NCBI GenBank assembly: GCA_963841585.1
Contig: CAWJDK010000031.1
Span: 182,450 to 246,449, forward strand
DNA: 64,000 nt
Origin: an uncultured Actinomycetes bacterium
GTDB lineage: Bacteria > Actinomycetota > Actinomycetes > Streptosporangiales > Streptosporangiaceae
Reading direction: 5' to 3'
Part shown: positions 3,248-43,612 of the stretch, one piece after another
How the letters are laid out: each line of letters opens with the position of its first letter
How positions within the stretch are numbered: position 1 is the first letter of the stretch
Made by a program: the position numbers and the translations under genes
The notes under the pieces: model-generated
Told to the model about the DNA's origin: nothing
Databases searched by the model: none
Seen by the model: only the letters and a program-made list of their open reading frames with translations

Positions 3248-4257
3248 GAGCAGCCGTAGACGTGGTTGGTGCGCTGCTCGGCGTCCTCGGGTACGTAGGC
3301 CACCCAGAGCGAGAACGCCGGAAGCTCGGCGTTCTCCGGGACCAGCTGGAGGGTCTGGTACGGGTACCCGGTGCGGATCGTAATGACGTCGGGCGACTTG
3401 CTGCCGCCGATGCCCTCGGCGGCCAGCAGGTTGGCGCCGCGGTTCTTCTTCCCGCCGGCGTGGGTGAACAGGTACCTGGCCTCTACCGAATCCGGGCCGG
3501 TCTCGTAGCCGAGCAGCTTAGGCTGAATCTTGCCCAGGATGCCCCGGTGCAGGAACTGGTGGTTCATGTCCAGCAGGTTCTCGTGCATGAACGAGTAGTG
3601 GCACTGGACGGTGCGCGAGAACATCATCGTCTTGTGCCGGCCGGAGTCGAACTCCGGCAGCTCGGGAAAGCCGGTCGTGGCCGCCTTCTCGGGATCGCCG
3701 GGAAAGACGAACACCAGGCCGTAGGCTTCGCGGACCGGATAGGCGCGGACGCCCCGCGGCGGCTGGCCGACGCCCTTGGGCAGGTACGGAATCTGCGAGA
3801 TGCGGCCGTTCCCCCGGTAGGCCCAGGCGTGATAGCAGCAGCGAAGCACATCGCCCTCGACGACGCCCATGCTCAGCGGTACCTGACGGTGGGCGCAGCG
3901 GTCCTCGAGCGCATAGACCGTGCCGCTCCCGCCCCGGTACAGCACGATCCGCTCACCCGCGAACACCGCCGCGAACGTCTTCTTCTTCCGCACGCTCGCC
4001 GATACGGCTACCGGGTACCAGAAGTCCGGGTCGATCCCGGTGCGCCTCAGGTCGGCCACCGCCTCGGCCTGCTCAGCCAGCCCACCGGTCTCGGCCTGCC
4101 CGGCCTCGGCCTGCCCGGCCTCGGCCTGCCCGGCCTCGGCCTGCCCGCCGTCGGCCTGCATTGTCCCGGCTTGCCCGATCTCGGCTTGCCCGGTCCCCGC
4201 TTGCTCCGCCAGATCGCCCTGGCCAGCGGCCGATCCGGCCGCGATTGTCTCGGTCAT
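3244..4257 (-). CDS. Rieske [2Fe-2S] non-heme iron oxygenase (PaO/ring-hydroxylating alpha-subunit-like)
   Basis: CAHRQVPL...CCYHAW matches the Rieske CxH...CxxH motif. The downstream catalytic domain has HENLLDMNHQFLH. Start chosen at MTETIAAGS (GGAGGG upstream). The N-terminus holds a (AGQAE)n repeat. Confidence 0.8.
   Translation of the reverse strand: MTETIAAGSAAGQGDLAEQAGTGQAEIGQAGTMQADGGQAEAGQAEAGQAEAGQAETGGLAEQAEAVADLRRTGIDPDFWYPVAVSASVRKKKTFAAVFAGERIVLYRGGSGTVYALEDRCAHRQVPLSMGVVEGDVLRCCYHAWAYRGNGRISQIPYLPKGVGQPPRGVRAYPVREAYGLVFVFPGDPEKAATTGFPELPEFDSGRHKTMMFSRTVQCHYSFMHENLLDMNHQFLHRGILGKIQPKLLGYETGPDSVEARYLFTHAGGKKNRGANLLAAEGIGGSKSPDVITIRTGYPYQTLQLVPENAELPAFSLWVAYVPEDAEQRTNHVYGCS
4091..4160. 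repeat. 15-bp tandem repeat (tcggcctgcccggcc, 4 full copies plus degenerate ones) inside the Rieske N-terminus
   Basis: Read directly at 4091-4150, with degenerate copies to about 4200. It is in frame and encodes AGQAE repeats. Confidence 0.85.
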
Positions 4258-9690: not shown

Positions 9691-9730
9691 GGCGCGGGCC
9701 GGGGAGGAAGATACCTCCCCGGCCCGCGCC
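9691..9730. terminator. Bidirectional GC-rich hairpin between convergent genes
   Basis: ggcgcgggccggggagg-aagata-cctccccggcccgcgcc, a perfect 17-bp stem. Confidence 0.6.
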
Positions 9731-9758
9731 AGCTAACGACCCGCCAGCTAACCAGCGG

Positions 9759-11735
9759 TCAGTGCCGGTATCCGAAGAAGAACGCCGGGCCGTACGGCGT
9801 GCCCACCCCGGTCTCGTCGTCGTAACCCGGGGTGTCGTGCAGGGTCGAGCTCTGCACGTCGACGGTTTGCAGCCGCCAGAACTTGCCTTGGCTGTTGTCC
9901 AGGAAGTTCGTGTAGTCGGTGCGGACCTGGGCCAGCGGCGAGGTCGGCGCCACGATGTCGTGCAGGGCCGAGGTGCCGAGCAGCCGGTAGTACAGCGGGT
10001 TGATGAAGCCCAGCAGGCGATGGTGCGCCTGGTCGGCCACTGCTACCACGCCCGCCAGAAGCGGGGAGGCAAGGCTGGTCCCGCCGATGCGGTACTGGGC
10101 CCAGTAGGTGCCGTTCGGGAACACCTGGGTCTCGCCGACCAGCATGCCGGTGTTGGGGTCGGCGTCCATCGCGATGTCGGGCACCGCCCGCATCGGGGTG
10201 CTGCCGTAGTACTCCGAGATGTTGGTGGGCACGTTGCCGGCCTGGTACCAGGGCTGGGTGTACAGCTGGCTGGTCCCGCCGCCGCCGCCGGAGTTGTAGG
10301 TGCCGGGCGGAGCCGGGGTCCAGGACTTCTTCTTCAGGGTCGAGTACGAGGTCTGCCAGCCATACTCGTCCAGCCACTGGCGGTGGCTGCCGATGAACAG
10401 GCTGGTGCCGCCAACCCCGGTGACGTAGGGCAGGTCGGCCGGGAAGTCCACGGTCTTGGCCGACAGGTCGGTGCCGCCGGCGGTCTGGTCGCCCGCGTCG
10501 CCGGCGGAGAAGTTCACCGTGATGCCGGTGAGGGCCGCTTCGAGGGAGAACTGCTCGTAGAACCGTACGTAGTCGGTGCCGAGCAGGGTGATGTCGTCCG
10601 TGTCGGAGCCCCAGGAGTTGCTGATCACGTCGGCGACATGGTTGTCGATCGTGGCCGCCCAGGTCTCGTCCAGCCCGCTGGCGCAGTCGGGCGCCCCGAC
10701 GTAGACGATGTTGGCGCCGGGCGCCATTGCGTGCACGGCCTCGACGTCGAGGGTCTCCTCGCCGTACCAGTCCTGGGGCCCGCACAGGCTGGTCTGGTCG
10801 AAGCCGTTCGGGGGCGGCACGATCTGGGAGAACTGGCCCGGCTGGAACAAGGGCTGGTGGTGCACCAGGTTGTACTTCTGGGCGTCGGCGTACATCGTCG
10901 GCGCCGCGTAGGCGTCGGTGACCGCCACGGTGACTCCGCCGCCGTCGAGGCCCGACTTGAGCAGCGAACTCTCGCCGTAGGCCGACTGGAGCTGCTGGGG
11001 GCCGTAGCCGCAGACCGCATAGGGCTGGTGCTTGCCGTAGGCAGCGGGCTTGTTGCTGGCTACCTTCTGCGCGTAGTAGGCCGAGCATGGCTGCACCCCG
11101 TACCTGGCGCCGGGCGGCGGACCGGGTTCGGTGGCGGCGGTGTGCTTGAGGGCGGTGCCCTGGTCGATCCCGATCACCCCGGTGAGCGCGCCGGCGACCA
11201 CGGCCGGGGTGCCCGCCGGAAGGGATAGCTCCGAGTTGTTCGCGTGAACGTCCTTACCGAGGTAGGAGTAGTCGTGCACGCTCGTGCCGAAGGTGCTCTC
11301 CACCTGCGCGACCGAACCCCTGGCCTCCACGTACATCCCGCTGGGCAGGGTCGTGGTGATCCGGAAGCCTTCCGAGCGGAGCCAGTGCTGGACCGCGGTG
11401 ACGGAGGACCTGGCCGGCGCGAAACGGGCGTCGAATTCCGCGTTGGTCAGCCACTGGCCGTAGCTGGGGCTGGCCGGGTCGGAGACCGCTTGCAAGGTGT
11501 CCATGGCGTCGGCTTGATCACGCATGCCGAGGAGTACGCCGAAGCTCATCTGCTGTGCCGGCGGGCTCGTGCCCATATCGCGCGCCTGGTGCAGCCACTT
11601 GGGCATGCTTCCGTCCAGCGGATGTCGGCCTTGCGCCGCGGCCGAAGCGACTCCGGCTGTCGCCGTCAGGCCGAGCACGGTGCCGCTGGCCAGCAGGCCA
11701 ATGGCCACCTTGCGAACGAATCGGGACGAACCCAT
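9759..11735 (-). CDS. Secreted S53 (sedolisin/kumamolisin-type) serine peptidase with pro-domain
   Basis: Signal peptide, pro-kumamolisin-like N-domain, GGTSLASPLLAG catalytic-serine motif. Confidence 0.9.
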   Translation of the reverse strand: MGSSRFVRKVAIGLLASGTVLGLTATAGVASAAAQGRHPLDGSMPKWLHQARDMGTSPPAQQMSFGVLLGMRDQADAMDTLQAVSDPASPSYGQWLTNAEFDARFAPARSSVTAVQHWLRSEGFRITTTLPSGMYVEARGSVAQVESTFGTSVHDYSYLGKDVHANNSELSLPAGTPAVVAGALTGVIGIDQGTALKHTAATEPGPPPGARYGVQPCSAYYAQKVASNKPAAYGKHQPYAVCGYGPQQLQSAYGESSLLKSGLDGGGVTVAVTDAYAAPTMYADAQKYNLVHHQPLFQPGQFSQIVPPPNGFDQTSLCGPQDWYGEETLDVEAVHAMAPGANIVYVGAPDCASGLDETWAATIDNHVADVISNSWGSDTDDITLLGTDYVRFYEQFSLEAALTGITVNFSAGDAGDQTAGGTDLSAKTVDFPADLPYVTGVGGTSLFIGSHRQWLDEYGWQTSYSTLKKKSWTPAPPGTYNSGGGGGTSQLYTQPWYQAGNVPTNISEYYGSTPMRAVPDIAMDADPNTGMLVGETQVFPNGTYWAQYRIGGTSLASPLLAGVVAVADQAHHRLLGFINPLYYRLLGTSALHDIVAPTSPLAQVRTDYTNFLDNSQGKFWRLQTVDVQSSTLHDTPGYDDETGVGTPYGPAFFFGYRH

Positions 11736-14165: not shown

Positions 14166-15008
14166 TCAGGCCGGCCCGTGCCGCTTGGCTCCGCTGCTCC
14201 CGTGGCCGTGGCCGTGGCCAGCGCCGTGGCCCGGGCGTCCGCCGGCCTCGGCGGTGCCCCGCGCCACAGCGAGCACGCCGAGCAGCGCGGCCAGCGGGAC
14301 GGCCACCGCGATGAAGTCGGATGAGGTGAAGTTGCCCAGCGCGTTCAGCGCCCCGGCGAACCCGACGATCAGCACCGCGACCACCGTCAGGCCCCACCCG
14401 TGCAAGAACAGCCGCAGCGTGAACGGCGGCCTGGGCTCGGCCACCTCGGCCACGGCGGTAACGGTCTTGGTCGCGCGCCGTTCGGTCAGGCCCTCGCGCA
14501 CCCGGGCGATGATGGTCAGCTCGCCGGGCTGCTCGGGCAGCAGCAGCAGGTCGCCGGGATGAGCCGGGTCGGGCGCGTGCGACACCGCGCCGCCGCCGAC
14601 CGCCCACGTCACGACCTGGTGCGGGCCCGCGGACTGGACCCGGAACCTGGCCTGCTCGCCGGCCACGACCTCATCCGGACCCTCGATAACCTCGGGCAGC
14701 CCCTTACCTGCCCGGCCGCCTGCGCCACTGCCTGCCCGGCCACCTGCCGCGGCGGGCTTGGCCCGCGCCTGTCCCTCCGTGGCCTCTTTAGCTGCGGCGC
14801 CTTCGATCGCGGCCGCGGCCTTCTCGGCCGAGCCGTTTCCGCTGACGACCGGGAACTGGCGCCGGACCAGCAGTTCCGCCAGCCGGATCTGGCGTGCGTT
14901 CACGCTCCAGGCCATGGCCACCACCACCGCGGCTACCGCGGCCGCGCCCAGCCCGAGCCAGGCGGCGACGGCGGGATGGCTGGCCCCTTGGACAAGGGCT
15001 TCGAACAT
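14166..15008 (-). CDS. Hypothetical membrane protein with a His/Gly-rich C-terminal tail
   Basis: 280-aa GC3-rich ORF. It has one N-terminal and two C-terminal hydrophobic helices and the tail GHGAGHGHGHGSS. No family recognised. Confidence 0.5.
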   Translation of the reverse strand: MFEALVQGASHPAVAAWLGLGAAAVAAVVVAMAWSVNARQIRLAELLVRRQFPVVSGNGSAEKAAAAIEGAAAKEATEGQARAKPAAAGGRAGSGAGGRAGKGLPEVIEGPDEVVAGEQARFRVQSAGPHQVVTWAVGGGAVSHAPDPAHPGDLLLLPEQPGELTIIARVREGLTERRATKTVTAVAEVAEPRPPFTLRLFLHGWGLTVVAVLIVGFAGALNALGNFTSSDFIAVAVPLAALLGVLAVARGTAEAGGRPGHGAGHGHGHGSSGAKRHGPA

Positions 15009-15119
15009 GTCATCTATTAAAACATATGATCGAACACCCGGAAACCCCGTTCGATTTCATTCGAACCGAACGAGCCCAGCCTCTCGCCCTCCGCCCCGGA
15101 CGCGGTCTCCGCCCAGCGT

Positions 15120-15230
15120 CTCGCCTCCGTCCCGGACCGCAGCCTTTGTCCATCGCCCTCGCCTCCGTCCCGGACCGCAGCTTTGTCCATCGCCTCGCCT
15201 CCGTCCCGGACCGCAGCTTTTGTCCACCCT
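15120..15230. repeat. Tandem repeat, about 37-bp unit x3 (ctcgcctccgtcccggaccgcagctttgtccatcgcc)
   Basis: Units at 15120, 15158 and 15194, with a degenerate copy just upstream. Confidence 0.85.
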
Positions 15231-15297
15231 CTGTCCGGCCGTGCCCATCGCCTTCGACGCGTCGCGACAGTGGCGCGGCGCGTCGGCCAGCGAAAGA

Positions 15298-15397
15298 AAC
15301 TTCGGTCACTCTGGCACCATCCGTACCCGATCATTCGATGTGAATGTCCCATTCATGCAGCTAGAACGACATGAATGGGACATTCACGCCGTATAAA
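15298..15397 (+). repeat. Hairpin-cored interspersed repeat, copy 1
   Basis: Perfect 18-bp inverted repeat GTGAATGTCCCATTCATG (15340-15357) / CATGAATGGGACATTCAC (15370-15387) with a 12-nt loop and a GCCGTATAAA tail. Homologous copies lie at 26395-26459 and 61120-61210. Confidence 0.85.
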
Positions 15398-15515
15398 AGG
15401 GGCGGGCCCGGGTGGTGGGCAAACGATTCTGCGGTCGCAGGAGGCTCTCGGGCGCGCAGGGGCACCACGGATCACAGCCTCGTAGCACGCCGTCCGCGCC
15501 TGGTCCCGCTGCACC

Positions 15516-15607
15516 GGAGGTGCAGCGGAGATGCCAGCGGAGGTGCAGCGAAGATGCCAGCGGAGGTGCAGCGGAGGTGCCAGCGGAGGTGCAGGGAAGA
15601 TGCCAGC
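15516..15607. repeat. Tandem repeat, 23-bp unit x4 (ggaggtgcagcggagatgccagc)
   Basis: Read directly; non-coding context. Confidence 0.85.
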
Positions 15608-15695
15608 GGAGAGGAATGCCGAGCCGACTTGACGTGAGCTCTCGTCCCCGCGGCGCCGCTGCTAGCCGCTCTCTGTTAGCCGTTGCAACAGCTAG

Positions 15696-15875
15696 CTAGC
15701 CGTTGTGGGGGCTGACTGAGCTCAGCGCGTCGTCCAGCATCCCGGGAAAGGTGTCCGGGTACTTGGCCAGCAGGTAGGTCATGACGCCGAGGAGATCGGA
15801 GCCGCTGAGCGCCTTGACCCGGGAGATCCGTAGCTCGGCGCCGGCCTCGTGGGTGCCGGTTTCAGAATCGGTCAT
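15696..15875 (-). CDS. Small hypothetical protein (59 aa) immediately downstream of 15885..16691
   Basis: My own translation is MTDSETGTHEAGAELRISRVKALSGSDLLGVMTYLLAKYPDTFPGMLDDALSSVSPHNG. GC3-rich, 9 nt after the upstream stop, and below the ORF-track size cutoff. Confidence 0.35.
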   Translation of the reverse strand: MTDSETGTHEAGAELRISRVKALSGSDLLGVMTYLLAKYPDTFPGMLDDALSSVSPHNG

Positions 15876-15884
15876 GCGTCCCGG

Positions 15885-16691
15885 CTACCCCCGGCAACGA
15901 GGAAAATCCGCCGCATTCCCGGTTAATGCACGCAGCGCTTCCTCTGGCACGAGCGCCAGCACCTCGGCCGCGGCAGCCGGAACGCCGCTGACGTACAGCG
16001 GCGGCGCCAGCGTGTGCGTGTCGGCCGCGACGATCTTGACGTCGGACAGGCCGATGGCCAGGTCCGCCGGGTCGGCCGCCAGCTTGTCCCGTACGGCGGC
16101 GGTGGCTCCCCTCAGCGCGCCGGCCGCGGCGCCGGCGTGGTGCCCCACCACCAGGTGCAGGTCGTTGTCCACGTCGGCGGGCCGGGCGTGGTAGCGGTGC
16201 AGCAGCCCCGCCGCGTTCATCTCGCGCCGAAGCTCGTCCAGCGGCATGCCCGCCCCTGCCACGCCAGCCAGCGAGTCGGCCGGCCATCCCACCAGCACGA
16301 ACGCCTCGCCTTGCACCGAGAAGGTCCGTTCGGCCAGGTGCTGGCCCCGGCTGCGGAACGGGACCGCCTGGTCCGGCCGGAACCCGCCGATCCTGACCCG
16401 CAACGGCACCGCGAAGCGCCGGGCCAGGATGTCCATCACCCGCGGCAGGTCCATCTCCTGCCGCACGCCCTCGTGCTCGAGCAGGTACTCGTTGACGATC
16501 GTGCCGCCCTCGCGCACGCCGTTGAGCGCGATCAGCGTGCCGTGCACCTGCTCCAGGGTGTACGGGCGGAAATCGGCCCCCACGTGCTCGGCGATCAGCG
16601 CCTGTACCCCGGTCAGCAGCTCGCGCAGCCGGCCGGTTTTCGGTCCGTAGAAGGCCACGGCCGAGATGAAACGGCTTCCCACCCCGTTCAT
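15885..16691 (-). CDS. Hypothetical protein (268 aa), family not recognised
   Basis: GC3-rich ORF. Weak 2H-phosphoesterase-like H-x-T motif (VHGTLIAL) plus HLVVGH. Divergent from the LLM gene. Confidence 0.55.
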   Translation of the reverse strand: MNGVGSRFISAVAFYGPKTGRLRELLTGVQALIAEHVGADFRPYTLEQVHGTLIALNGVREGGTIVNEYLLEHEGVRQEMDLPRVMDILARRFAVPLRVRIGGFRPDQAVPFRSRGQHLAERTFSVQGEAFVLVGWPADSLAGVAGAGMPLDELRREMNAAGLLHRYHARPADVDNDLHLVVGHHAGAAAGALRGATAAVRDKLAADPADLAIGLSDVKIVAADTHTLAPPLYVSGVPAAAAEVLALVPEEALRALTGNAADFPRCRG

Positions 16692-25447: not shown

Positions 25448-26229
25448 AGGTCATGCCTTACGAGCTGCACGTGCTCACCGGCAGCTATGCCCTGGACGCC
25501 GTCAGCGATGCAGAGCGCGAGGAGTTCGAGCGTCATCTGCAGCACTGCCCCAGTTGCGACGCCGAGGTGCGCGGACTGCGCGAGACCGCGGCCGGGCTCG
25601 CCCGGACCTGCGCCCTGACCCCGCCGGCCCGGATGGAGCAGCAGGTGCTGGCGGCCACGTACCGGACCAGGCAGCTCCCGCCGCTACCCGCCGACCGCCC
25701 CCGCCGCATCCCGCAAATCCCGCGTGTCGCGCACATTCCGCGTGTCGCGCACATTCCGCGTGTCACGCACATCCCGCGTGTCCCTAGCATCTCGCGCCTC
25801 CCGCGCCGGCTGGCCGTGCTCGCCGCCGCGGCCAGCGTGGCCGTGGCCGCCGGACTCGGGATCACCCAGCTATCCACCCAGCACCAGCTCGACCGGGCCC
25901 GGGCCACCGCGATCGCCCGGGTGGTCACCGCACCTGACGCCCGGGTCGATACCGCGCCGACCAGCGCGGGCGGGAACGTCACCGTCGTCACCTCGGCCGC
26001 GCTGCGCGAGTCGGTGGTCAGCGCCAGCGGGATGGCGTCCTTGCCGTCCGGCCGCGTCTACCAGGTCTGGGTGATGAGCCCGTCCGGCGCGCGCTCGGCC
26101 GGCCTGCTGCACGGCAGTTCCCTGCTGGCCTCCGCGGTCCGCCCCGGCGACCGGATCGGCATCACCGTCGAGCCCGCGGGCGGCACCGCCCGCCCGACCA
26201 CGAGCCCCGTCGCGGTCCTGCCCGTCTAG
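25441..26229 (+). CDS. rskA: Anti-sigma-K factor RskA-type (zf-HC2 N-domain, TM, extracytoplasmic RskA domain)
   Basis: LTGSYALDAVSDAEREEFERHLQHCPSCDAEV, a central TM, and C-terminal VYQVWVM...ITVEPAGG. The start overlaps the sigma stop. Confidence 0.75.
   Translation: MVKVMPYELHVLTGSYALDAVSDAEREEFERHLQHCPSCDAEVRGLRETAAGLARTCALTPPARMEQQVLAATYRTRQLPPLPADRPRRIPQIPRVAHIPRVAHIPRVTHIPRVPSISRLPRRLAVLAAAASVAVAAGLGITQLSTQHQLDRARATAIARVVTAPDARVDTAPTSAGGNVTVVTSAALRESVVSASGMASLPSGRVYQVWVMSPSGARSAGLLHGSSLLASAVRPGDRIGITVEPAGGTARPTTSPVAVLPV
25717..25806 (+). repeat. In-frame 18-bp tandem repeat x5 (IPRVAH units) in the RskA cytoplasmic linker
   Basis: atcccgcgtgtcgcgcac and variants read directly. Confidence 0.85.
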
Positions 26230-26248
26230 AGAAGTACTGGCCTGGCGC

Positions 26249-26339
26249 GGCAGCCTGGTACGGCAGCCTGGCACGGCAGCCTGGCACGGCAGCCTGGCAC
26301 GGCAGCCTGGCACGGCAGCCTGGTACGGCAGCCTGGCAC
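26249..26339. repeat. Tandem repeat, 13-bp unit x7 (ggcagcctggyac)
   Basis: Read directly. No spacers, and it lies immediately upstream of hairpin copy 2. Confidence 0.9.
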
Positions 26340-26394
26340 GGCGGATCGTCCGCCGCCGTACCACCTGCCCCGCTGGCATCATCAGCACCGCGAC

Positions 26395-26459
26395 ATACGA
26401 TGTGAATGTCCCATTCATGCAGCTGGAGCGACATGGCTGGGACATCCACGCCGTATAAA
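26395..26459 (+). repeat. Hairpin-cored interspersed repeat, copy 2
   Basis: GTGAATGTCCCATTCATG (26402-26419), loop cagctggagcga, CATGGCTGGGACATCCAC (26432-26449), tail GCCGTATAAA. Confidence 0.85.
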
Positions 26460-26777
26460 CAGCCGGGAGCAGCGGCCGCCGGGCCGGATCAGGAGCCACC
26501 ACAGCCACAGCGATCACTCCGCAGACGCCAGCCCCGAAGGCAGGCCCCGGCCAGTCCCGGCGAATCCGCGGAGAGCCCGTAATCCCCGACGTCAAAAGTC
26601 GCTAAGCCCCTGGACTCCCTCGCCAGCGCGACGATCGTGAAATTCACGCGGCCCGCAGCCTCAGTAGGCACCGAACTCCCTAGCATTACGGCACAGGCTG
26701 GCCGCTCGCCGGAGGAAGCACCTATCTATCATGTCCCGCGCTATATCGGCTTGCGGTATAGCGGGAGGCGCTATAGA

Positions 26778-27113
26778 GTGACCGGCGTGACAGACAGACT
26801 CGACCGCTGGGCTGATCCGCCGCTGCTGGTGCTGGCCAGCCTGGCCGACGAGCCCAAGCACGGCTACGCCATCATCCAGGACGTGGCGGAGACCATGGGC
26901 GTTCGGCTCAGCGCGGGCACCCTCTACGCGGTCATCGCCCGGCTCGAGGCGCGCGGCCTGATCGAGCCGCTCGAGTCCGACGACCGCCGCCGGCCGTACC
27001 GCATCACGATGGCCGGGGCCGAGGCGCTGGCGCAGCAGTCCGAGCGGATGAGCAAGGTCGCCTCGGTGGCCAGGGAGCGGCTGGGTACCCGCCTCGGCTG
27101 GGCCGGCGCATGA
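26778..27113 (+). CDS. PadR family transcriptional regulator
   Basis: LLVLASLADEPKHGYAIIQDV...GTLYAVIARLEARGLIE. GTG at 26778 preceded by GGGAGG. Confidence 0.8.
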   Translation: MTGVTDRLDRWADPPLLVLASLADEPKHGYAIIQDVAETMGVRLSAGTLYAVIARLEARGLIEPLESDDRRRPYRITMAGAEALAQQSERMSKVASVARERLGTRLGWAGA

Positions 27114-27958
27114 GGGCGTCCCTGGTCCAGGCCGCGCTGGCCCTCTACCCGCCCTCCTGGCGAGCCCGCTACGGCGACGAAGTCCGGGCGCTCCTCGAGG
27201 ACTCGGGCGACTGGCCGGCCGCCGTAGCCAGCGTCGCCTGGCGCGCACTGCCCGCCTGGTTCCGGCCGCCCCTGCGCGACCGGCCGACCCGGATGCGGGC
27301 CAGCCTGGCCACCGCGCTCATGTCCTGGTCCATGCTGGCCGGCCTGGGCCTCGTCTTCGCCCAGCTCACCCAGCTGCAGGGCCTCACCGCTCCCGGCCAC
27401 CCCGAACTTCGCTGGGCTTACGCCATCTTCGACGTCACCCTCGCCACCTCGGCCCTGGTCGCCGGGCTCGGCGGGTTGCCGCTGTGGCTGCTCATGCTGC
27501 GCCGGGCGTGGCGCGAGCGGCGCATCCGCGACGCGGTGTACTTGTCCCTGCCGCTGGTCGCTCCGGTCGCGTACCTGATCGGCCTGGCCGTGACGGTCCG
27601 GCTGGTCGCCGGCCCGAACGGGGTCAGCCAGGGATGGTTCGGTTTCGTCACCCTGACCGGGTTCGCCGCGGCTGCCACCGCGGCGACCGGACCGGGCCTG
27701 GCCCTGCGCAGGCTGCAGCCGCGGGGGCCAGCCCTGCGCCTGGCCGCGGCCGCGGCCGGCGTGTCGGCCGCGGTCACGGCGGTGGCCGCCGTGGCCATCG
27801 TGGTCGCCGTGACCAGCCTGAGCCTGTGGGCCCGACAGTTCGCCGGCTATCACGACGGCACCGTGTCAGGCATCTACCTGGCGCTGGTCGTCACCGCCGC
27901 GACCGTCACGACGGTGAGCGCCGCGCGCGGCACCCGGGCCGCGCTGGCCCAGTCCTAG
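27110..27958 (+). CDS. PadR-associated integral membrane protein (hypothetical)
   Basis: 282-aa ORF with ATGA overlap to padR and about 6 hydrophobic helices. Confidence 0.65.
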   Translation: MRASLVQAALALYPPSWRARYGDEVRALLEDSGDWPAAVASVAWRALPAWFRPPLRDRPTRMRASLATALMSWSMLAGLGLVFAQLTQLQGLTAPGHPELRWAYAIFDVTLATSALVAGLGGLPLWLLMLRRAWRERRIRDAVYLSLPLVAPVAYLIGLAVTVRLVAGPNGVSQGWFGFVTLTGFAAAATAATGPGLALRRLQPRGPALRLAAAAAGVSAAVTAVAAVAIVVAVTSLSLWARQFAGYHDGTVSGIYLALVVTAATVTTVSAARGTRAALAQS

Positions 27959-28672: not shown

Positions 28673-28818
28673 AATCGCAGCGGGTCCCCGGGCTGGCCTG
28701 GTACCCCGACCAGCAGACTCCTAGAACGCCCGGCCAAGTAGCCAGTCCGGCCACGGAGCGTCACACAGCGGCCAGTTTGTACCTTTTGTCCGGCCTGGGT
28801 GACGCATCTGCGCGGGTT

Positions 28819-30849
28819 ACCGTGGAGGATCGGGGTTACGTGGAGGATCCGGTACCCCCTGGGGCGTGTTGCAAAATAGATTTTGGTGTTTGGCCTGCTA
28901 GAACAGGGTTTATGGCGCACAGGTACCTTCCGGTGGACCGGGATCAGCCGGCCTTTCTGCCCCTGAATATGCGTGACTGGGTGCCGAAGGACCATGTTGT
29001 CTGGCTGGTCATCGACACGGTTGAGCAGCTGGGCACCCCGGAGCTGGCGGCGCGGCTGGCGGGCGGGACGCGGAAGAGCGCCCGGGGCCGGCGGGCGTAT
29101 CACCCGGTGATGCTGCTGACCTTGCTGGCGTACGCGTATTTGTCCGGGGTGCTGTCGACCCGGGCGGTCGAGGCGCGGTGCCGGGTGGATGCCACCTTCC
29201 GGCTGGCGTGCGCCGGGCTGGTGCCCGATCATACGACGATCTCCCGGTTCCGGCAGCGGGCCTGCGGGGAGGGCGGGCCGATGGAGGACGTGTTTTACGC
29301 GGTGCTGCGGGTGTGCGCGACGGCCGGGCTGGGCCGGCTGAGCGTGGTGGCGGCGGACGGGGTCAAGATCGGGGCGAATGCGTCGAAGGAGGCGAACCGG
29401 ACCGAGGCCGGGCTGCGCAAGCTGGCCGCGGCGGTCATGGCCGGGGCCGCGGCCGCCGATGAGCCGGACGCGGCGGAGACCGGCGAGGACCTGTTCGGCG
29501 GGCAGGCGCTGCCGCCGGGGTGGGCCGATCGGCGGTCGCGGCTGGCCCGGGTGCGGGCGTGCCTGGCGGACTTCGCCGCGCAGCGGGAGGCCGCCGAGGC
29601 GGCGCGGCGGGCGGCCGGCCAGGCGTGGCTGGACGCGCAGGCCGCCGGTAAGCCGGTGACCAGGCCGCCGGCGGCCGTGGCGGTGGAGGCGGCGCGGATC
29701 GCCCTGGAGGCCGAGGTGGCCCGGCAGCAGGCGCTGGTCGATGAGTGGGACCGCAAGCGGGCCGCGGGGGGCCGGGCGGGCAAGAAGCCGGTGCCGGCCG
29801 AGGCGTCCCGCCGGGTGGCCCGGCAGCGGGAACGGCTGGCCCGCGCCGAGGCCGCAGCCGCCGCCGCGCGGCAGGAGGAAGAGGAGGACCAGGCCGGGGG
29901 CGGTGAGCCGGACGGGACGGGGAAGAAGAAGGACAAGCCCAGGCCGGTGCGCAACGTCACCGACCCGGATTCGGCGCTGATGCCGGTCCGCGGCGGCGGG
30001 CTGAAGCAGGGGTACAACTGCCAGGACGCCGCCGCCGATGACCGGCTGATGCTGGGCGGGTTCGCCTCCTCCTGCGCCGCCGACACCGTGCACGCCGCCC
30101 GCCTGGAACAGGTCGCGGTCAAAGGCGCGCAGGTCGTCGCCGCCGCGCACGCCGATCCCGGGCACCCCGTAGCCGGCTGCCACGCCCGGATGTGCACCGC
30201 GGAAGATGCCGCCGATCCCGGCCACGACGTCACCGCCTGCCACGCGCGGATGACCGGGGGGATCGGCGTGCTGGTGGAAGACGCCGGGTACTGCTCCGAG
30301 GCCAACCTCACCGCCGGCGGCAGCGTGGACCGGCTTATCGCCACCGGCAACCGCGCCAGCATGGGCAAGGCCGCCCGGGACAATCCCGCGGCCGGGCCGC
30401 CGCCCGAAGACGCCACCGCGACCGAGAAGATGGACCACCGGCTGCGCACTCCCCAGGGCCGCGCCGCCTACAAGCGCCGCGCCCCCGACATCGAGGGCGT
30501 GCACGCCAGCATCGAGGACCTCATCGGGCTGCGCCGGTTCTCCATGCGCGGCCTGACCCTGGCCACCGGCGAGTTCCTGCTCGCCGGGCTGTGCCACAAC
30601 CTGCTGCTGCTGTCCCGCCTGCCCTAACCCGGGCCCGGGCGCGGAAACTTTCCCCACAGCCGGCGCCAGCACGCCCGGAAACTATCCACAGCCCCTCGAA
30701 CCGGCCTCCACCAGGCCAGACCCGGGCCACAGCAGCCTGCCGAGGCACCTGGAACTCGCTAATGTAAAGGAATGAGCCCAGGCCACGCGGAAATCGCAAC
30801 AGGCCCCAGGGGGTACCAAAAGCTCCGTATAACCCGGATCCTCCACGTT
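28819..30849 (+). mobile_element. IS1182-family (IS5-superfamily) insertion sequence, apparently intact
   Basis: About 54-bp terminal inverted repeats. Left is ACCGTGGAGGATCGGGGTTACGTGGAGGATCCGGTACCCCCTGGGGCGTGTTGC (28819-28872). Right reverse-complement is AACGTGGAGGATCCGGGTTATACGGAGCTTTTGGTACCCCCTGGGGCCTGTTGC (30796-30849). Ends may extend about 35 bp further out. Confidence 0.8.
28912..30627 (+). CDS. IS1182-family DDE transposase
   Basis: MAHRYLPVDRDQPAFLPLNMRDWVPKDHVVWLV (InsH-type N-domain), a long A/E/R-rich linker, and a C-terminal DDE region (EDAGYCSEANL...GLRRFSMRGL). Confidence 0.85.
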   Translation: MAHRYLPVDRDQPAFLPLNMRDWVPKDHVVWLVIDTVEQLGTPELAARLAGGTRKSARGRRAYHPVMLLTLLAYAYLSGVLSTRAVEARCRVDATFRLACAGLVPDHTTISRFRQRACGEGGPMEDVFYAVLRVCATAGLGRLSVVAADGVKIGANASKEANRTEAGLRKLAAAVMAGAAAADEPDAAETGEDLFGGQALPPGWADRRSRLARVRACLADFAAQREAAEAARRAAGQAWLDAQAAGKPVTRPPAAVAVEAARIALEAEVARQQALVDEWDRKRAAGGRAGKKPVPAEASRRVARQRERLARAEAAAAAARQEEEEDQAGGGEPDGTGKKKDKPRPVRNVTDPDSALMPVRGGGLKQGYNCQDAAADDRLMLGGFASSCAADTVHAARLEQVAVKGAQVVAAAHADPGHPVAGCHARMCTAEDAADPGHDVTACHARMTGGIGVLVEDAGYCSEANLTAGGSVDRLIATGNRASMGKAARDNPAAGPPPEDATATEKMDHRLRTPQGRAAYKRRAPDIEGVHASIEDLIGLRRFSMRGLTLATGEFLLAGLCHNLLLLSRLP

Positions 30850-41590: not shown

Positions 41591-43612
41591 CTAGACGGTG
41601 GCCTGGAGCTTGGCCAGCTCCTGCTGCACCCTGGCCTCGTGCTCGGCCTCGTCCCGCTTGGCGTCCCGGGTCCGCCAGCGGCCCCGCAGCAGCGGGATGG
41701 ACAGCAGGAAGAAGATGATGCCGCCGAAGCAGATCCAGTACCAGGTCTTCCACTGCCCGGCCGTCTTGGCCGCGGCGTTCTGCACATCCGCGGCGTGCGC
41801 CTTCAGGTAGGTGAAGACTCCCGGCGGGACCTTGGACAGCGCGGTCAGCTGCGCCGAGTACGGGGCGATGGTATTCAGCTGCGCCGAGTACGGGGCGATG
41901 GTCTTCAGCTGCGCCGCGTACGGGGCGACCTGCTGCAGCTGGGGCGCGGCCGCGATCACGCCGTTGATGGCCGCCTTGTTGGTCGCGATCGTGGTCAGCA
42001 TGGCGATGCCCTTGGCGCCGCCGCCGGCCGCGGCGATCGCCTGGCCCAGCAGCGCGGGCGGGATCTTGGACGCGCTCGGGTAGGTGGCCAGCTTGGTGAA
42101 CAGCGCCGGGTGGGCCTGGATCACCGCGAGCTGGGGCGCGAACTTCTGCGCGTTCGCGAGCTGGACGGAGTCGGTCTTCACGATGGTCAGCACGTTCGGC
42201 GGGATCGCCTGAGCGGCGGCCAGGACGTTCGGCGGGATCTTCTGCGCGGTCGCCACGACGTCCGGGTGCGCGGTGGCGAAGGCCAGCTGGCTCTGGTACT
42301 GGGTCGCGTAGGCCTGCACCTGGGCCCCGTAGTTCACCAGCGGGGTGACCGTGTTGACCACCAGCGGGAGGCACAGGTAGGCGAGGAAGACCACGATCCG
42401 GATGATCCAGCCCCAGATGGCCAGGCCGGTGGCGATGAGCGCCGGGTTGCGGGCCTCCACCGTCTCGGTGAAGCTGGCCATCCACGGGGTGTAGGCGATG
42501 CCGAGGCCGAGCGACAGCAGGGCCAGCATGAGGGCCAGCGAGTAGTAGCCCGGGTGATGGCCGGCCTGCTCCAGGTAGACCACGGTCATGATCGCGGCCA
42601 GCACGCCGCCGATCACCATGAACGGCTTGCGGACCCGGAACCGGTCGGAGATGATCCCGACCAGGATCACCGCGATGACGTTGAAGCCCCAGTTCCAGTT
42701 GCCCAGCCCGTTGGCGTCCTTGACCGACAAGCCGAACACGGTGGTCAGGTAGATCACGGCGAACGCGACGGCGGTGTAGTAGATCAGCAGCATGATCGAC
42801 ACCGCGATGGAGGAGACGATGACGTCGGTCTTGAGCAGCTGGCGGAACGGGTGACGCAGCGCCGCCTCGATGTCCGCTTCGGTCAGGCCCTTGGCCTTGG
42901 CCTCGATCAACGCGCGGTCGCGCATGGTCACCATCAGCTGGTCCCGCAGCCGCGGGGACAGTTCCTTCAGCCCGATCAGCGCGATCACGAACACGACGAT
43001 GCCGGCGATGCCGCAGATGCGGTACTCGTGGGTCCAGAACCGGTCGTTGTTGACGACGGCGGGAACGGTGGCGCTGCCTACCACCGAGACGATCAGGCTG
43101 CCGATCACCGGGCCGCTGGTCCAGAAACCCATGGCCGTGGCCCGGCCCACCTGCGGGGAGAAGTCCCGGATCAGGGCGGGGGTGGCGACCAGGCAGATGC
43201 CTTCCACGAAGCCGACGACCCAGCTCTCGATGGTGAACGTCCACTTGTTGGTCGCGGTGGGCATGATGAACGCGACGAACACCCCGGTGAAGAACAGGCC
43301 GAACACGACCAGGTTGGCCCGGCCGAGCCGGTCGGTGATCCCGGCGAACAGCGAGCCGAACGCCCCGATCAGCGCCCCGAACGCCAGCGTCAGCACGAAG
43401 AACGTGAAGCTCATGTGCAGGTTGGCCAGGAGCAGCGTGGACACCGAGCCGCCGACATAGAGCTCGTAGTACAGCGTGATCGTGGCCAGCACCGTGATGG
43501 CCAGGTACGTCACCCTGGGCCTGGTTTCCGGATAGGAATCGAGCTGCCGTTTAAGGAGCCAGTCAACCCACCCGGGCCGAGTGGAGACTGGCTGCGCGGC
43601 GGTCCCTGACAT
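41591..43612 (-). CDS. MFS transporter with a ~250-aa C-terminal repeat-containing extension and an extra terminal TM helix
   Basis: 12-TM MFS core, then an A/Q/P-rich domain with APYSAQL repeats, then WKTWYWICFGGIIFFLLSIPLL and a charged tail. Start at MSGTAAQP, because the codons upstream are AT3-rich. Confidence 0.8.
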   Translation of the reverse strand: MSGTAAQPVSTRPGWVDWLLKRQLDSYPETRPRVTYLAITVLATITLYYELYVGGSVSTLLLANLHMSFTFFVLTLAFGALIGAFGSLFAGITDRLGRANLVVFGLFFTGVFVAFIMPTATNKWTFTIESWVVGFVEGICLVATPALIRDFSPQVGRATAMGFWTSGPVIGSLIVSVVGSATVPAVVNNDRFWTHEYRICGIAGIVVFVIALIGLKELSPRLRDQLMVTMRDRALIEAKAKGLTEADIEAALRHPFRQLLKTDVIVSSIAVSIMLLIYYTAVAFAVIYLTTVFGLSVKDANGLGNWNWGFNVIAVILVGIISDRFRVRKPFMVIGGVLAAIMTVVYLEQAGHHPGYYSLALMLALLSLGLGIAYTPWMASFTETVEARNPALIATGLAIWGWIIRIVVFLAYLCLPLVVNTVTPLVNYGAQVQAYATQYQSQLAFATAHPDVVATAQKIPPNVLAAAQAIPPNVLTIVKTDSVQLANAQKFAPQLAVIQAHPALFTKLATYPSASKIPPALLGQAIAAAGGGAKGIAMLTTIATNKAAINGVIAAAPQLQQVAPYAAQLKTIAPYSAQLNTIAPYSAQLTALSKVPPGVFTYLKAHAADVQNAAAKTAGQWKTWYWICFGGIIFFLLSIPLLRGRWRTRDAKRDEAEHEARVQQELAKLQATV
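41846..41935. repeat. In-frame 30-bp tandem repeat x3 in the MFS C-terminal extension
   Basis: cagctgcgccgagtacggggcgatggtatt and variants, encoding APYSAQL(N/K)TI. Confidence 0.85.

Follow-up and report, generated by a model that had tools for sequence, protein, structure and literature searches.

The 64,000-nucleotide stretch of DNA considered here (the window; contig CAWJDK010000031.1, positions 182,450 to 246,449) stems from an uncultured Actinomycetes bacterium of the Streptosporangiaceae and carries three copies of a hairpin-cored repeat. With a probability of roughly 0.68, we interpret this repeat as a dispersed, non-coding and intergenic mosaic element of soil actinomycetes that resembles the repetitive extragenic palindromic (REP) sequences and bacterial interspersed mosaic elements (BIMEs), and that constitutes a landing pad for several families of insertion sequences (ISs). 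REP-type repeats and the IS110 elements targeting them are well studied in Proteobacteria. The present family, which is abundant in metagenomes, is apparently an undescribed counterpart of this relationship in soil actinomycetes, and hence adds to a known category rather than opening a new one. Moreover, members of four IS families gather at the intergenic sites that it marks, which aids annotation and explains assembly breaks at these positions.

The hairpin core and its copies in the window

The core of the repeat is formed by an 18-nt arm, GTGAATGTCCCATTCATG, which in copy 1 lies at 15340-15357 and is followed, after a loop of 12 nt, by its perfect complement at 15370-15387, exactly as the initial annotation had described it; this core (15340..15387) is supported by the arm matches and by the fold. 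On the same strand the arm recurs at 26402-26419 (copy 2), where the right arm at 26432-26449 contains three mismatches, and at 61162-61179 (copy 3), where the right arm at 61192-61209 contains two, so that the arm search and the alignment bear out the three copies of uniform orientation that had been proposed. Taken together, the arm and its complement yield six matches in the window against 0.00 expected from shuffled sequences. In copy 1 the imperfect palindrome reaches out to 15326-15401. An alignment of copies 1-3 reveals 27 invariant bases (CGATGTGAATGTCCCATTCATGCAGCT), and the tail GCCGTATAAA is common to copies 1 and 2. The element is indeed AT-richer than its surroundings, with a G+C content of 0.48 in copy 1 (15298-15397), 0.57 in copy 2 and 0.49 in copy 3 against 0.717 in the window. 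Folding of single copies gives z values of -3.2 to -6.3 over the window copies, with -4.8 on the plus strand and -6.3 on the minus strand for the hairpin of copy 1. A profile search with nhmmer recovered copy 1 (E=2e-31) and copy 2 (E=1e-32) and found no further full copies in the 64-kb window.

The conserved unit exceeds the approximately 100 bp first ascribed to it, since alignment extends it to about 185-275 bp. Copy 1, a member of subfamily B, spans 15296..15478 on the plus strand, as delimited by nhmmer and by alignment with 11 other copies of this subfamily, and comprises a 5' module (AACTTCGGTCACTCTGGCACCATCCGTACC...), the hairpin, the tail GCCGTATAAA and a 3' module of about 80 nt ending in ...GCACCACGGATCACAG. 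Copy 2, which belongs to subfamily A and measures about 275 bp, was placed at 26331..26606 on the plus strand by nhmmer and an alignment of 11 subfamily-A copies. Copy 3 is divided into two plus-strand parts: the left one (61117..61210) contains the subfamily-B 5' module and the hairpin and stops at an IS junction, ...CATTCACG, while the right one (62739..62820) contains the tail CCGTATCCGCG and the subfamily-B 3' module (...GATCACCAGTCACAAGAACG...GCACCAGAGG). Rejoined, the two parts align end to end with intact subfamily-B copies. A further stretch just 3' of copy 3, at 62868-62903 (CACGAACGCGGCATCCACGCCGCATTTCACG), resembles the right arm and tail of the related GTGGATGCC hairpin subfamily (nhmmer E = 0.11; compare locus L053) and may represent a decayed half-copy.

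A dispersed family with exchangeable modules

To the window copies were added those obtained by scanning soil metagenomes with an exact 21-mer of the core left arm, which yielded 29 contigs carrying this core. Clustering of the flanks resolved 30 distinct contexts among the resulting 33 copies, which are pooled over many genomes, and the flanks beyond the unit are unrelated to one another. None of the 33 copies overlaps an open reading frame (ORF) supported by the G+C content at third codon positions (GC3); the copies, whose intergenic placement the initial annotation had left to be checked, are found downstream of stop codons as well as in gaps between convergent or divergent genes, with a mixed orientation of the neighbouring genes. 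This supports the original suspicion of a dispersed, hairpin-cored family of REP-like character.

The idea that the three window copies represent a single recent segmental duplication, or a chance similarity, could draw on the fact that all of them lie on the same strand. It is refuted and deserves next to no credence: the copies resemble one another over no more than 100-185 bp and have unrelated surroundings, copy 2 is of another subfamily than the other two, the core is present in 29 independent metagenome contigs, and the number of matches expected by chance is 0. None of the three outcomes that the initial annotation had named as damaging to its proposal was observed, namely absence of the core elsewhere, copies that are parts of one duplicated segment, and a position inside a conserved gene.

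In subfamily B (copies 1 and 3; about 185 bp), a 5' module of about 45 nt (GCGAACTTCCGTCACTCTGGCACCGTCCGTACCAGATCATWCGA) precedes the 48-nt hairpin, which is followed by the tail GCCGTATAAAC or GCCGTATCC and a 3' module of about 80-90 nt (...GGGATCACCGGTCACAGGAATGTCCCGGGAACGCAGGAGCACCAGGGG). Subfamily A (copy 2) begins at GCCTGGYGCGGCGGATCGT and reaches about 275 bp over the 11 aligned copies. ATWCGAT borders the hairpin on its left and GCCGTAT on its right, while the 5' and 3' modules are variable; in L053r and L054r a different hairpin subfamily is joined to the same 5' or 3' modules. The commonest right arm, present in most copies, is CATGGCTGGGACATCCAC. The perfect palindrome, although real in copy 1, is therefore a minority allele and not the norm of the family. 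Across 10 hairpin variants and 25 pairs, pairing is kept in 88% of the cells, and between hairpin subfamilies the basal stem displays double changes (A-T to G-C and T-A to C-G) that preserve pairing, which fits any function depending on a hairpin or palindrome.

Related hairpins may be widespread in Pseudonocardiales. Among the matches listed in a contig scan with the 18-mer arm, most were chance matches in a Flavobacterium coding region, and one was a locus of Amycolatopsis eburnea (L006) with a related but different hairpin. Here, an AT-rich hairpin with 36-nt arms (ATGTGATGAAAGGGTCGTTCATCTCG / CGACATGAATGACCCTTTCATGACAT) occupies positions 2535-2611 after a stop codon, and at a distance of about 100 bp a single arm occurs on its own that matches GTGAATGTCCCATTCATG of the window exactly. 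As for the host of the window, its lineage is under-sampled: the best named homologues of its HypD protein reach no more than 87-88% identity and belong to Pseudonocardiales as well as Streptosporangiales; placement by this protein was dropped because it is too conserved.

A probably RNA-guided insertion sequence at the hairpin/tail junction

Copy 3 is split by an IS110-family element of 1,528 bp (61211..62738, minus strand), the ends of which were defined by alignment with IS copies elsewhere that are 83-90% identical. On its own strand, the IS reads CAGGGAGGATG...AAGAGCAT. It sits exactly between the hairpin and the tail of the repeat (CATTCACG^CCGTATC), and its flanks rejoin as ...GGGACATTCACG + CCGTATCCGCG..., which corresponds to the hairpin-tail junction of an intact element. 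Comparison of the junctions, GATACGG|IS|CGTGAATG, with the intact sequence ATACGGCGTGAATG is consistent with insertion without target duplication. The IS encodes a DEDD transposase/recombinase of 346 aa (61430..62470, minus strand), which Pfam assigns to DEDD_Tnp_IS110 (PF01548; 5.5e-19) and Transposase_20 (PF02371; 1.9e-13). Close homologues of this protein number in the thousands in soil metagenomes and include 346-aa proteins of up to 94% identity, and the named homologues come from metagenome-assembled genomes of Streptosporangiaceae. At the metagenome locus L020, an IS of 90% identity occupies the identical junction, and the sequence past the 3' end of the element differs from that in the window. 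The earlier statement that no known IS explains this architecture therefore does not hold, as the odd spacing of copy 3 is accounted for by the IS110-family element.

The target junction between right arm and tail reads TCACG^CCGTATC (target site TCACGCCGTATC). The gene is flanked by non-coding ends of 268 nt on its 5' side and 219 nt on its 3' side, the latter of which contains a predicted target-guide RNA stem-loop (61341..61423, minus strand) supported by a consensus fold and by co-variation between guides and flanks. According to the consensus fold, a closing stem of 17 bp surrounds an internal loop that carries both putative guides, and a further stem follows; the guides are positioned just 3' of the transposase stop codon with a small hairpin between them. 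Guide 1 (61391-61401) reads in the sense of GATACGG^C, which comprises the left flank and the initial base of the right one; guide 2 (61366-61370) is the antisense counterpart of CGTGA, the five bases with which the right flank opens. Such an internal loop with guides corresponds to the architecture of bridge RNAs and seekRNAs (PMC11208160; PMC11187229).

In five variants of the IS the guides co-vary with the target flanks. In the window and L020, guide 1 GATACGGC corresponds to the left flank GATACGG^C and guide 2 TCACG to the right flank CGTGA; L050-L055 retain guide 1 GATACGGC with the left flank GATACGG^C and combine a guide 2 of CCACG with a right flank of CGTGG. L018 features guide 1 CCAGAGTTGGC with the left flank CCAGAGTTGG^C and guide 2 ACACG with CGTGA, of which four of five positions match. 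The remaining pairs are TAATCGGC with TAATCGG^C and GATCG with CGATC in L008, and CAAACGAC with CAAACGA^C and CGATG with CATCG in L056-L058. In addition, the base of related hairpins is the insertion site of the P0011 IS in 6/6 cases and of the P0010 IS in 3/3 cases; the hairpin subfamilies at these sites are GTGGATGCC...GGCATCCAC and ATCGATGCC...GGCATCGAT, and several of the sites are surrounded by the same subfamily-B modules. On sequence grounds, an IS110-family recombinase that appears to be RNA-guided is programmed for the hairpin/tail junction. The proposal that the hairpin serves as a recombinase recognition structure is borne out to the extent that this junction holds an IS110-family IS in copy 3 and L020 and that related variants occupy the base of related hairpins. 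The data provide five natural guide-target pairs of one IS110-type lineage, all of which we place at hairpin bases, and bear on the recent claim that stem-loops in the target add specificity to bridge recombinases. In the case of ISPpu10, a stem-loop beside the target is reported to be a specificity determinant (bioRxiv 10.64898/2026.03.19.712850), and the hairpin beside the present target may be regarded as an analogous arrangement.

In many respects the IS in copy 3 resembles the IS110/IS1111 elements with bridge RNA or seekRNA, such as IS621, ISEc11 and ISPpu10. It shares with them the DEDD and Transposase_20 domains, the absence of terminal inverted repeats and of an evident target duplication, a predicted RNA internal loop with one segment for each target strand, and relatives that are naturally reprogrammed to other targets; like that of ISPpu10, its target adjoins a stem-loop (bioRxiv 10.64898/2026.03.19.712850). 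As in the IS1111 type, the target guides are located 3' of the gene, yet the subterminal inverted repeats of 11-13 bp typical of that type are not visible, and the match to the bottom strand precedes that to the top strand, which is the order of the IS110 type (PMC11187229). The possession of two long non-coding ends sets the element apart, being unusual for the IS110 as well as the IS1111 group as described (PMC11208160). The 5' non-coding end (62471-62738, minus strand) is highly conserved across variants, and a search of it for segments matching the flanks gave only short palindromic matches without co-variation; this end may harbour a promoter, a leader or the portion of the RNA that binds the donor.

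These likenesses concern the IS, and the repeat constitutes its target. One might nevertheless suppose that the hairpin element is itself part of an IS110-family IS, either as one of its ends or as a miniature inverted-repeat transposable element (MITE) derived from its ends, given that copy 3 and L020 both abut such an IS. Against this stand the facts that the similarity of the five IS variants stops at CAGGGAGG... and ...AAGAGCAT, with differing sequence beyond, and that the distant variants L008 and L018 are flanked by sequence unlike the repeat. Furthermore, an IS is lacking in the vicinity of copies 1 and 2 and of most metagenome copies, an intact element results when the two halves of copy 3 are rejoined, the non-coding ends of the IS display no similarity to the element, and terminal inverted repeats are absent. 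As far as sequence can tell, this very improbable reading is refuted.

Insertions within the hairpin loop

Divergence sets in inside the hairpin loop (GCAG-CTGG) in five further copies, and in four of these it begins immediately behind GCAGCTGG. According to Pfam, the insertions encode an IS1182-type transposase in L021 and an IS4-type transposase in L048. An ISAzo13-type transposase is found in L039, where CTGG is duplicated and the right half of the element lies 1.7 kb away, while the insertions of L023 and L027 share a common end. Together with copy 3 and L020, these cases bring the number of IS-disrupted copies to 7/33. The combination of IS110 targeting with loop hits by IS1182-, ISAzo13- and IS4-type elements is the reason to regard the repeat as a safe harbour for the insertion of several IS families, which parallels the known role of REP sequences as IS targets.

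The window contains an IS1182-type transposase gene of its own (DUF772 and DDE_Tnp_1_6) at 28675-30627 on the plus strand. It is probably a lineage-specific insertion, given that in the syntenic locus L059 this position is taken by a LysR-family gene and, after it, a NosD-like gene. That it sits inside a hairpin copy was ruled out, as its flanks contain none.

Presence and absence at the rskA-padR locus

Copy 2 lies between rskA and padR, a gap that can be compared among relatives. In the window and in L059, the RskA of which is 91% identical, the gap measures about 470 bp and consists of a tandem array, a subfamily-A copy and a further stretch of about 95 bp. By comparison, it amounts to only 30-50 bp in L060 (RskA 79%) and L061 (76%), where the block 26230-26700 is absent. 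Parsimony favours a gain of the element in the lineage of the window.

Directly upstream of the PadR-family gene, at 26738-26776, repeated GCGCTATA(T/G)CGG motifs are found, which recur in L060 (about 9700-9745) and L061 (about 10795-10835). Since they are kept in these relatives without the hairpin element, they probably represent the PadR operator. A perfect palindrome, CGTGAAATTCACG, is located at about 26637-26649, that is 3' of copy 2 and inside the block of about 470 bp, and is kept in L059; each half of it is similar to the hairpin arm ends (GTGAA/TTCAC).

Tandem arrays beside the repeat

All arrays listed in the initial annotation were recovered with Tandem Repeats Finder (TRF), albeit with slightly different copy numbers, and not all of them are C-rich on the plus strand. 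On the 5' side of copy 1, in the same gene gap, lies an array of 36-37 bp x3.9 (15083..15226; TRF score 193-209), and on its 3' side a G-rich array of 23 bp x4.2 (15510..15611; 15515-15611 according to TRF). Copy 2 is preceded by an array of 13 bp x7.9 (26240..26342) with the unit GCCTGGCACGGCA, which is the 5'-terminal motif of the element itself. Copy 3 is preceded by an array of 14 bp x15.7 or 57 bp x3.3 (60867..61090) and followed by one of 22 bp x5.3 (62968..63085). The arrays reported to follow copies 1 and 3 are therefore both real, and the 1.76 kb that separate the latter from copy 3 are due to the intervening IS of 1,528 bp; without it, the array begins about 150 bp past the element, a spacing much like that at copy 1.

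The association of arrays and element, suggested from inspection, is statistically real. In the window, all of the non-coding arrays scoring at least 100 (5/5) reside in gaps that hold the element, against none in the 14 other gene gaps (about 14 kb). Over the whole sample, an array is centred 40-300 bp 5' of the core in 10 of the 26 copies with enough upstream sequence, and the density of arrays between -300 and -40 is 1.59 per kb as opposed to 0.26 per kb elsewhere, an enrichment of about six-fold (p = 8.6e-5) that is measured against partly coding sequence. The array units measure 10 to 57 bp and bear no relation to one another across loci. In subfamily A, the unit corresponds to the first 10-14 nt of the element itself, while at other loci GCCTGGYGCGGCGGATCGT is single-copy; the period varies from 13 bp x8 in the window to 14 bp x~5 at the same locus in L059 and 10 bp x3.2 in L046. 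Likewise, copy 1 and its orthologue L049, the flanks of which are 95.7% identical, have different numbers of units in their 3' arrays. These differences between orthologues, together with the concentration on the 5' side, characterize the arrays as fast-evolving variable-number tandem repeats that are directionally tied to the element. We infer that they arise by slippage or template switching at the element boundary; more specifically, slipped-strand or template-switch events would occur where the element boundary coincides with an obstacle to replication. The link between arrays and element could serve as a testable model for the origin of bacterial minisatellites.

A bolder reading, which we consider doubtful, regards the hairpin as a structural gate read by several mobile elements and at the same time as a directional obstacle that seeds the 5' arrays. 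For an IS110-type recombinase, such a gate would be a match of sequence plus structure. If true, the element would be a built-in minisatellite generator of GC-rich actinomycete genomes, seeding arrays from the sequence at its 5' boundary. In a stronger version of this reading, the minus strand would yield a structured RNA, the conserved loop and mismatches of which bind a dedicated protein that mobilises the unit.

Four strong tandem repeats with periods of 15, 18, 30 and 33 bp are located in coding sequence of the window (4085-4193, 25712-25782, 41845-41928 and 42188-42265). They are in-frame within GC3-supported ORFs (Rieske oxygenase, RskA, major facilitator superfamily transporter) and unrelated to the hairpin element.

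Conservation of the core: a possible RNA gene or protein binding site

Throughout the family, the arms, loop and tail are near-invariant and thus conserved well above the flanking modules. The element could be a gene, present in many copies, that encodes a structured small RNA, in all likelihood on the minus strand, with the hairpin as central helix and a closing helix joining the 5' and 3' modules, a reading which we consider unlikely. In its favour, the consensus fold is better on the minus strand (-45.5 / -43.0 kcal/mol) than on the plus strand (-34.5 kcal/mol), and both the closing helix CUGGUGCU/GGUGCCAG and the common GUGGAUG/CAUUCAC variant require G-U pairs that exist on the minus strand only. 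Moreover, 93% of the cells are paired, double changes are observed at six pairs, and the z values given above for single copies point in the same direction. The covariation term, however, is about 0, and the observed values are reached in 18-37/500 shuffles, which is within the stated false-positive range of the tool; 19 of the 24 hairpin pairs are invariant. The commonest allele forms a GC/AA 2x2 mismatch on the minus strand where the plus strand has a U-G pair, and the evidence on the strand is therefore conflicting. Neither strand features a sigma-70-type promoter or an intrinsic terminator: the sigma-70 scan returned no promoter, and the terminator search found 0 sites on both strands of 15000-15700, where the stem is AT-rich and the tails are GCCGTATAAA and ATCGAATGA. 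No Rfam family reaches its gathering score anywhere in the window, with only spurious microRNA matches (E >= 0.046) in 15000-15700. Finally, IS insertions in the loop or tail are tolerated in 7/33 copies, and the 3' modules are swapped between subfamilies.

Two promoter candidates judged by eye, an extracytoplasmic-function-type GAAC-N17-CGTC in the subfamily-B 5' module and a TATAAA -10 element, were dropped because the motifs are poorly conserved and absent from subfamily A and because the tail has a CCGTATCC allele. Small ORFs across the hairpin were discarded as well; they are not conserved, and copy 1 has a TAG in the loop.

Alternatively, the hairpin could provide inverted binding sites for a DNA-binding protein, be it a transcription factor or a nucleoid-associated or architectural protein, and the copies would then be regulatory or structural. 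This reading, which we consider quite unlikely, accords with the near-invariance just described and with the fact that the arm of the window subfamily is itself palindromic (TGAATG-N3-CATTCA; 5 matches against 0.37 expected). The arm centres are 30 bp apart, and the palindrome CGTGAAATTCACG 3' of copy 2 would also be in line with it. On the other hand, position and orientation relative to promoters or gene starts are inconsistent, the inner mini-palindrome is lost in the related GTGGATGCC subfamily, and IS-disrupted copies are frequent; in addition, the element is absent at the orthologous locus of relatives that keep the PadR operator-like repeats.

Relation to known repeat systems

In keeping with its interpretation as a REP/BIME-like repeat and IS landing pad, the element shares a number of features with the REP sequences and BIMEs of Enterobacteria and Pseudomonas, namely dispersal, strictly intergenic and non-coding placement, an imperfect palindrome with conserved mismatches, and modular or mosaic flanks. 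Like these, the repeat is a favoured site of ISs, which include the IS110-family elements IS621 and ISPpu9/10 in the case of REP sequences (PMC11208160; PMC12288879); the targeting of REP elements by IS110-family members is documented (PMC11208160; PMC11187229). In contrast to them, the repeat has a single hairpin instead of clusters of alternating REPs, and its core is AT-rich in a genome of 72% GC that belongs to an actinomycete. The directional association with unrelated tandem arrays is, to our knowledge, not a described feature of REP sequences.

Several points weigh against this interpretation. The unit of 185-275 bp is 5-8 times longer than the 20-40 bp of a REP, and the GTAG motif is absent, the flanks here being CGAT and GCCG. 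No Y1/HUH transposase (REP-associated tyrosine transposase, RAYT) was detected among the approximately 35 window proteins scanned with Pfam. The presence/absence pattern at rskA-padR could represent loss rather than gain, and two 20-kb syntenic loci of relatives contain 0 copies and L059 one, as compared with three in the 64 kb of the window. The near-invariance of the loop and right arm, which a mere junk repeat would leave unexplained, hints at a sequence-specific ligand or function, while that of the left arm is in part an ascertainment effect because all metagenome copies were fetched by an exact 21-mer; the partly coding comparison sequence of the array enrichment is to be seen in the same light. 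If the REP/BIME-like interpretation is correct, the repeat would spread in trans by means of an enzyme that recognises the hairpin, for which one of the HUH/RAYT type would be the obvious candidate, and the hairpin would form in single-stranded DNA or RNA.

MITEs share with the repeat its short, non-coding, multi-copy and intergenic nature and its presence/absence polymorphism. The designation as MITE-like in the initial annotation was nonetheless not sustained: in place of terminal inverted repeats, the element offers only the internal hairpin and unrelated short GC-rich pairs, and no direct repeat indicative of a target-site duplication is shared at the boundaries of aligned copies or between the filled and empty rskA-padR sites. 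Nor is there a parent IS with matching ends. A different parallel is provided by integron attC sites as targets of IS1111-attC elements, which are likewise imperfect hairpin recombination sites with conserved unpaired bases that are targeted by the IS110/IS1111 family; unlike these, the repeat lacks GTTRRRY core sites, a cassette array and an integrase, and its copies are scattered. The pneumococcal BOX element (boxA-boxB(n)-boxC) is similar in being a modular intergenic repeat with a tandem module of variable copy number. However, the BOX module has the same sequence in all copies, whereas here each array has its own unit, which is derived from the element only in subfamily A.

A type III toxin-antitoxin array was rejected, as the hairpins of copies 1 and 3 are not succeeded by an ORF on the same strand and the array units are unrelated. 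Integron attC, dif, parS, the DnaA box, Rex/CRP operators and a plasmid single-strand origin were likewise dismissed on sequence or context.

Neighbouring open reading frames

Beside copies 1 and 2, four GC3-supported ORFs have no Pfam match, namely 14166-15008, 15696-15875 and 15885-16691 on the minus strand and 27110-27958 on the plus strand. Among their products is one of 280 aa that has the appearance of a membrane protein, its linker being rich in Ala and Gly and its tail in His and Gly. An open stretch that lacks a proper start (63160-63473, plus strand; ...GEAGIRQIIDVGAGLPTAGNTHEV...) adjoins the 22-bp array; judged by eye, it resembles a fragment of a gene for an S-adenosylmethionine-dependent methyltransferase and may be a pseudogene remnant.

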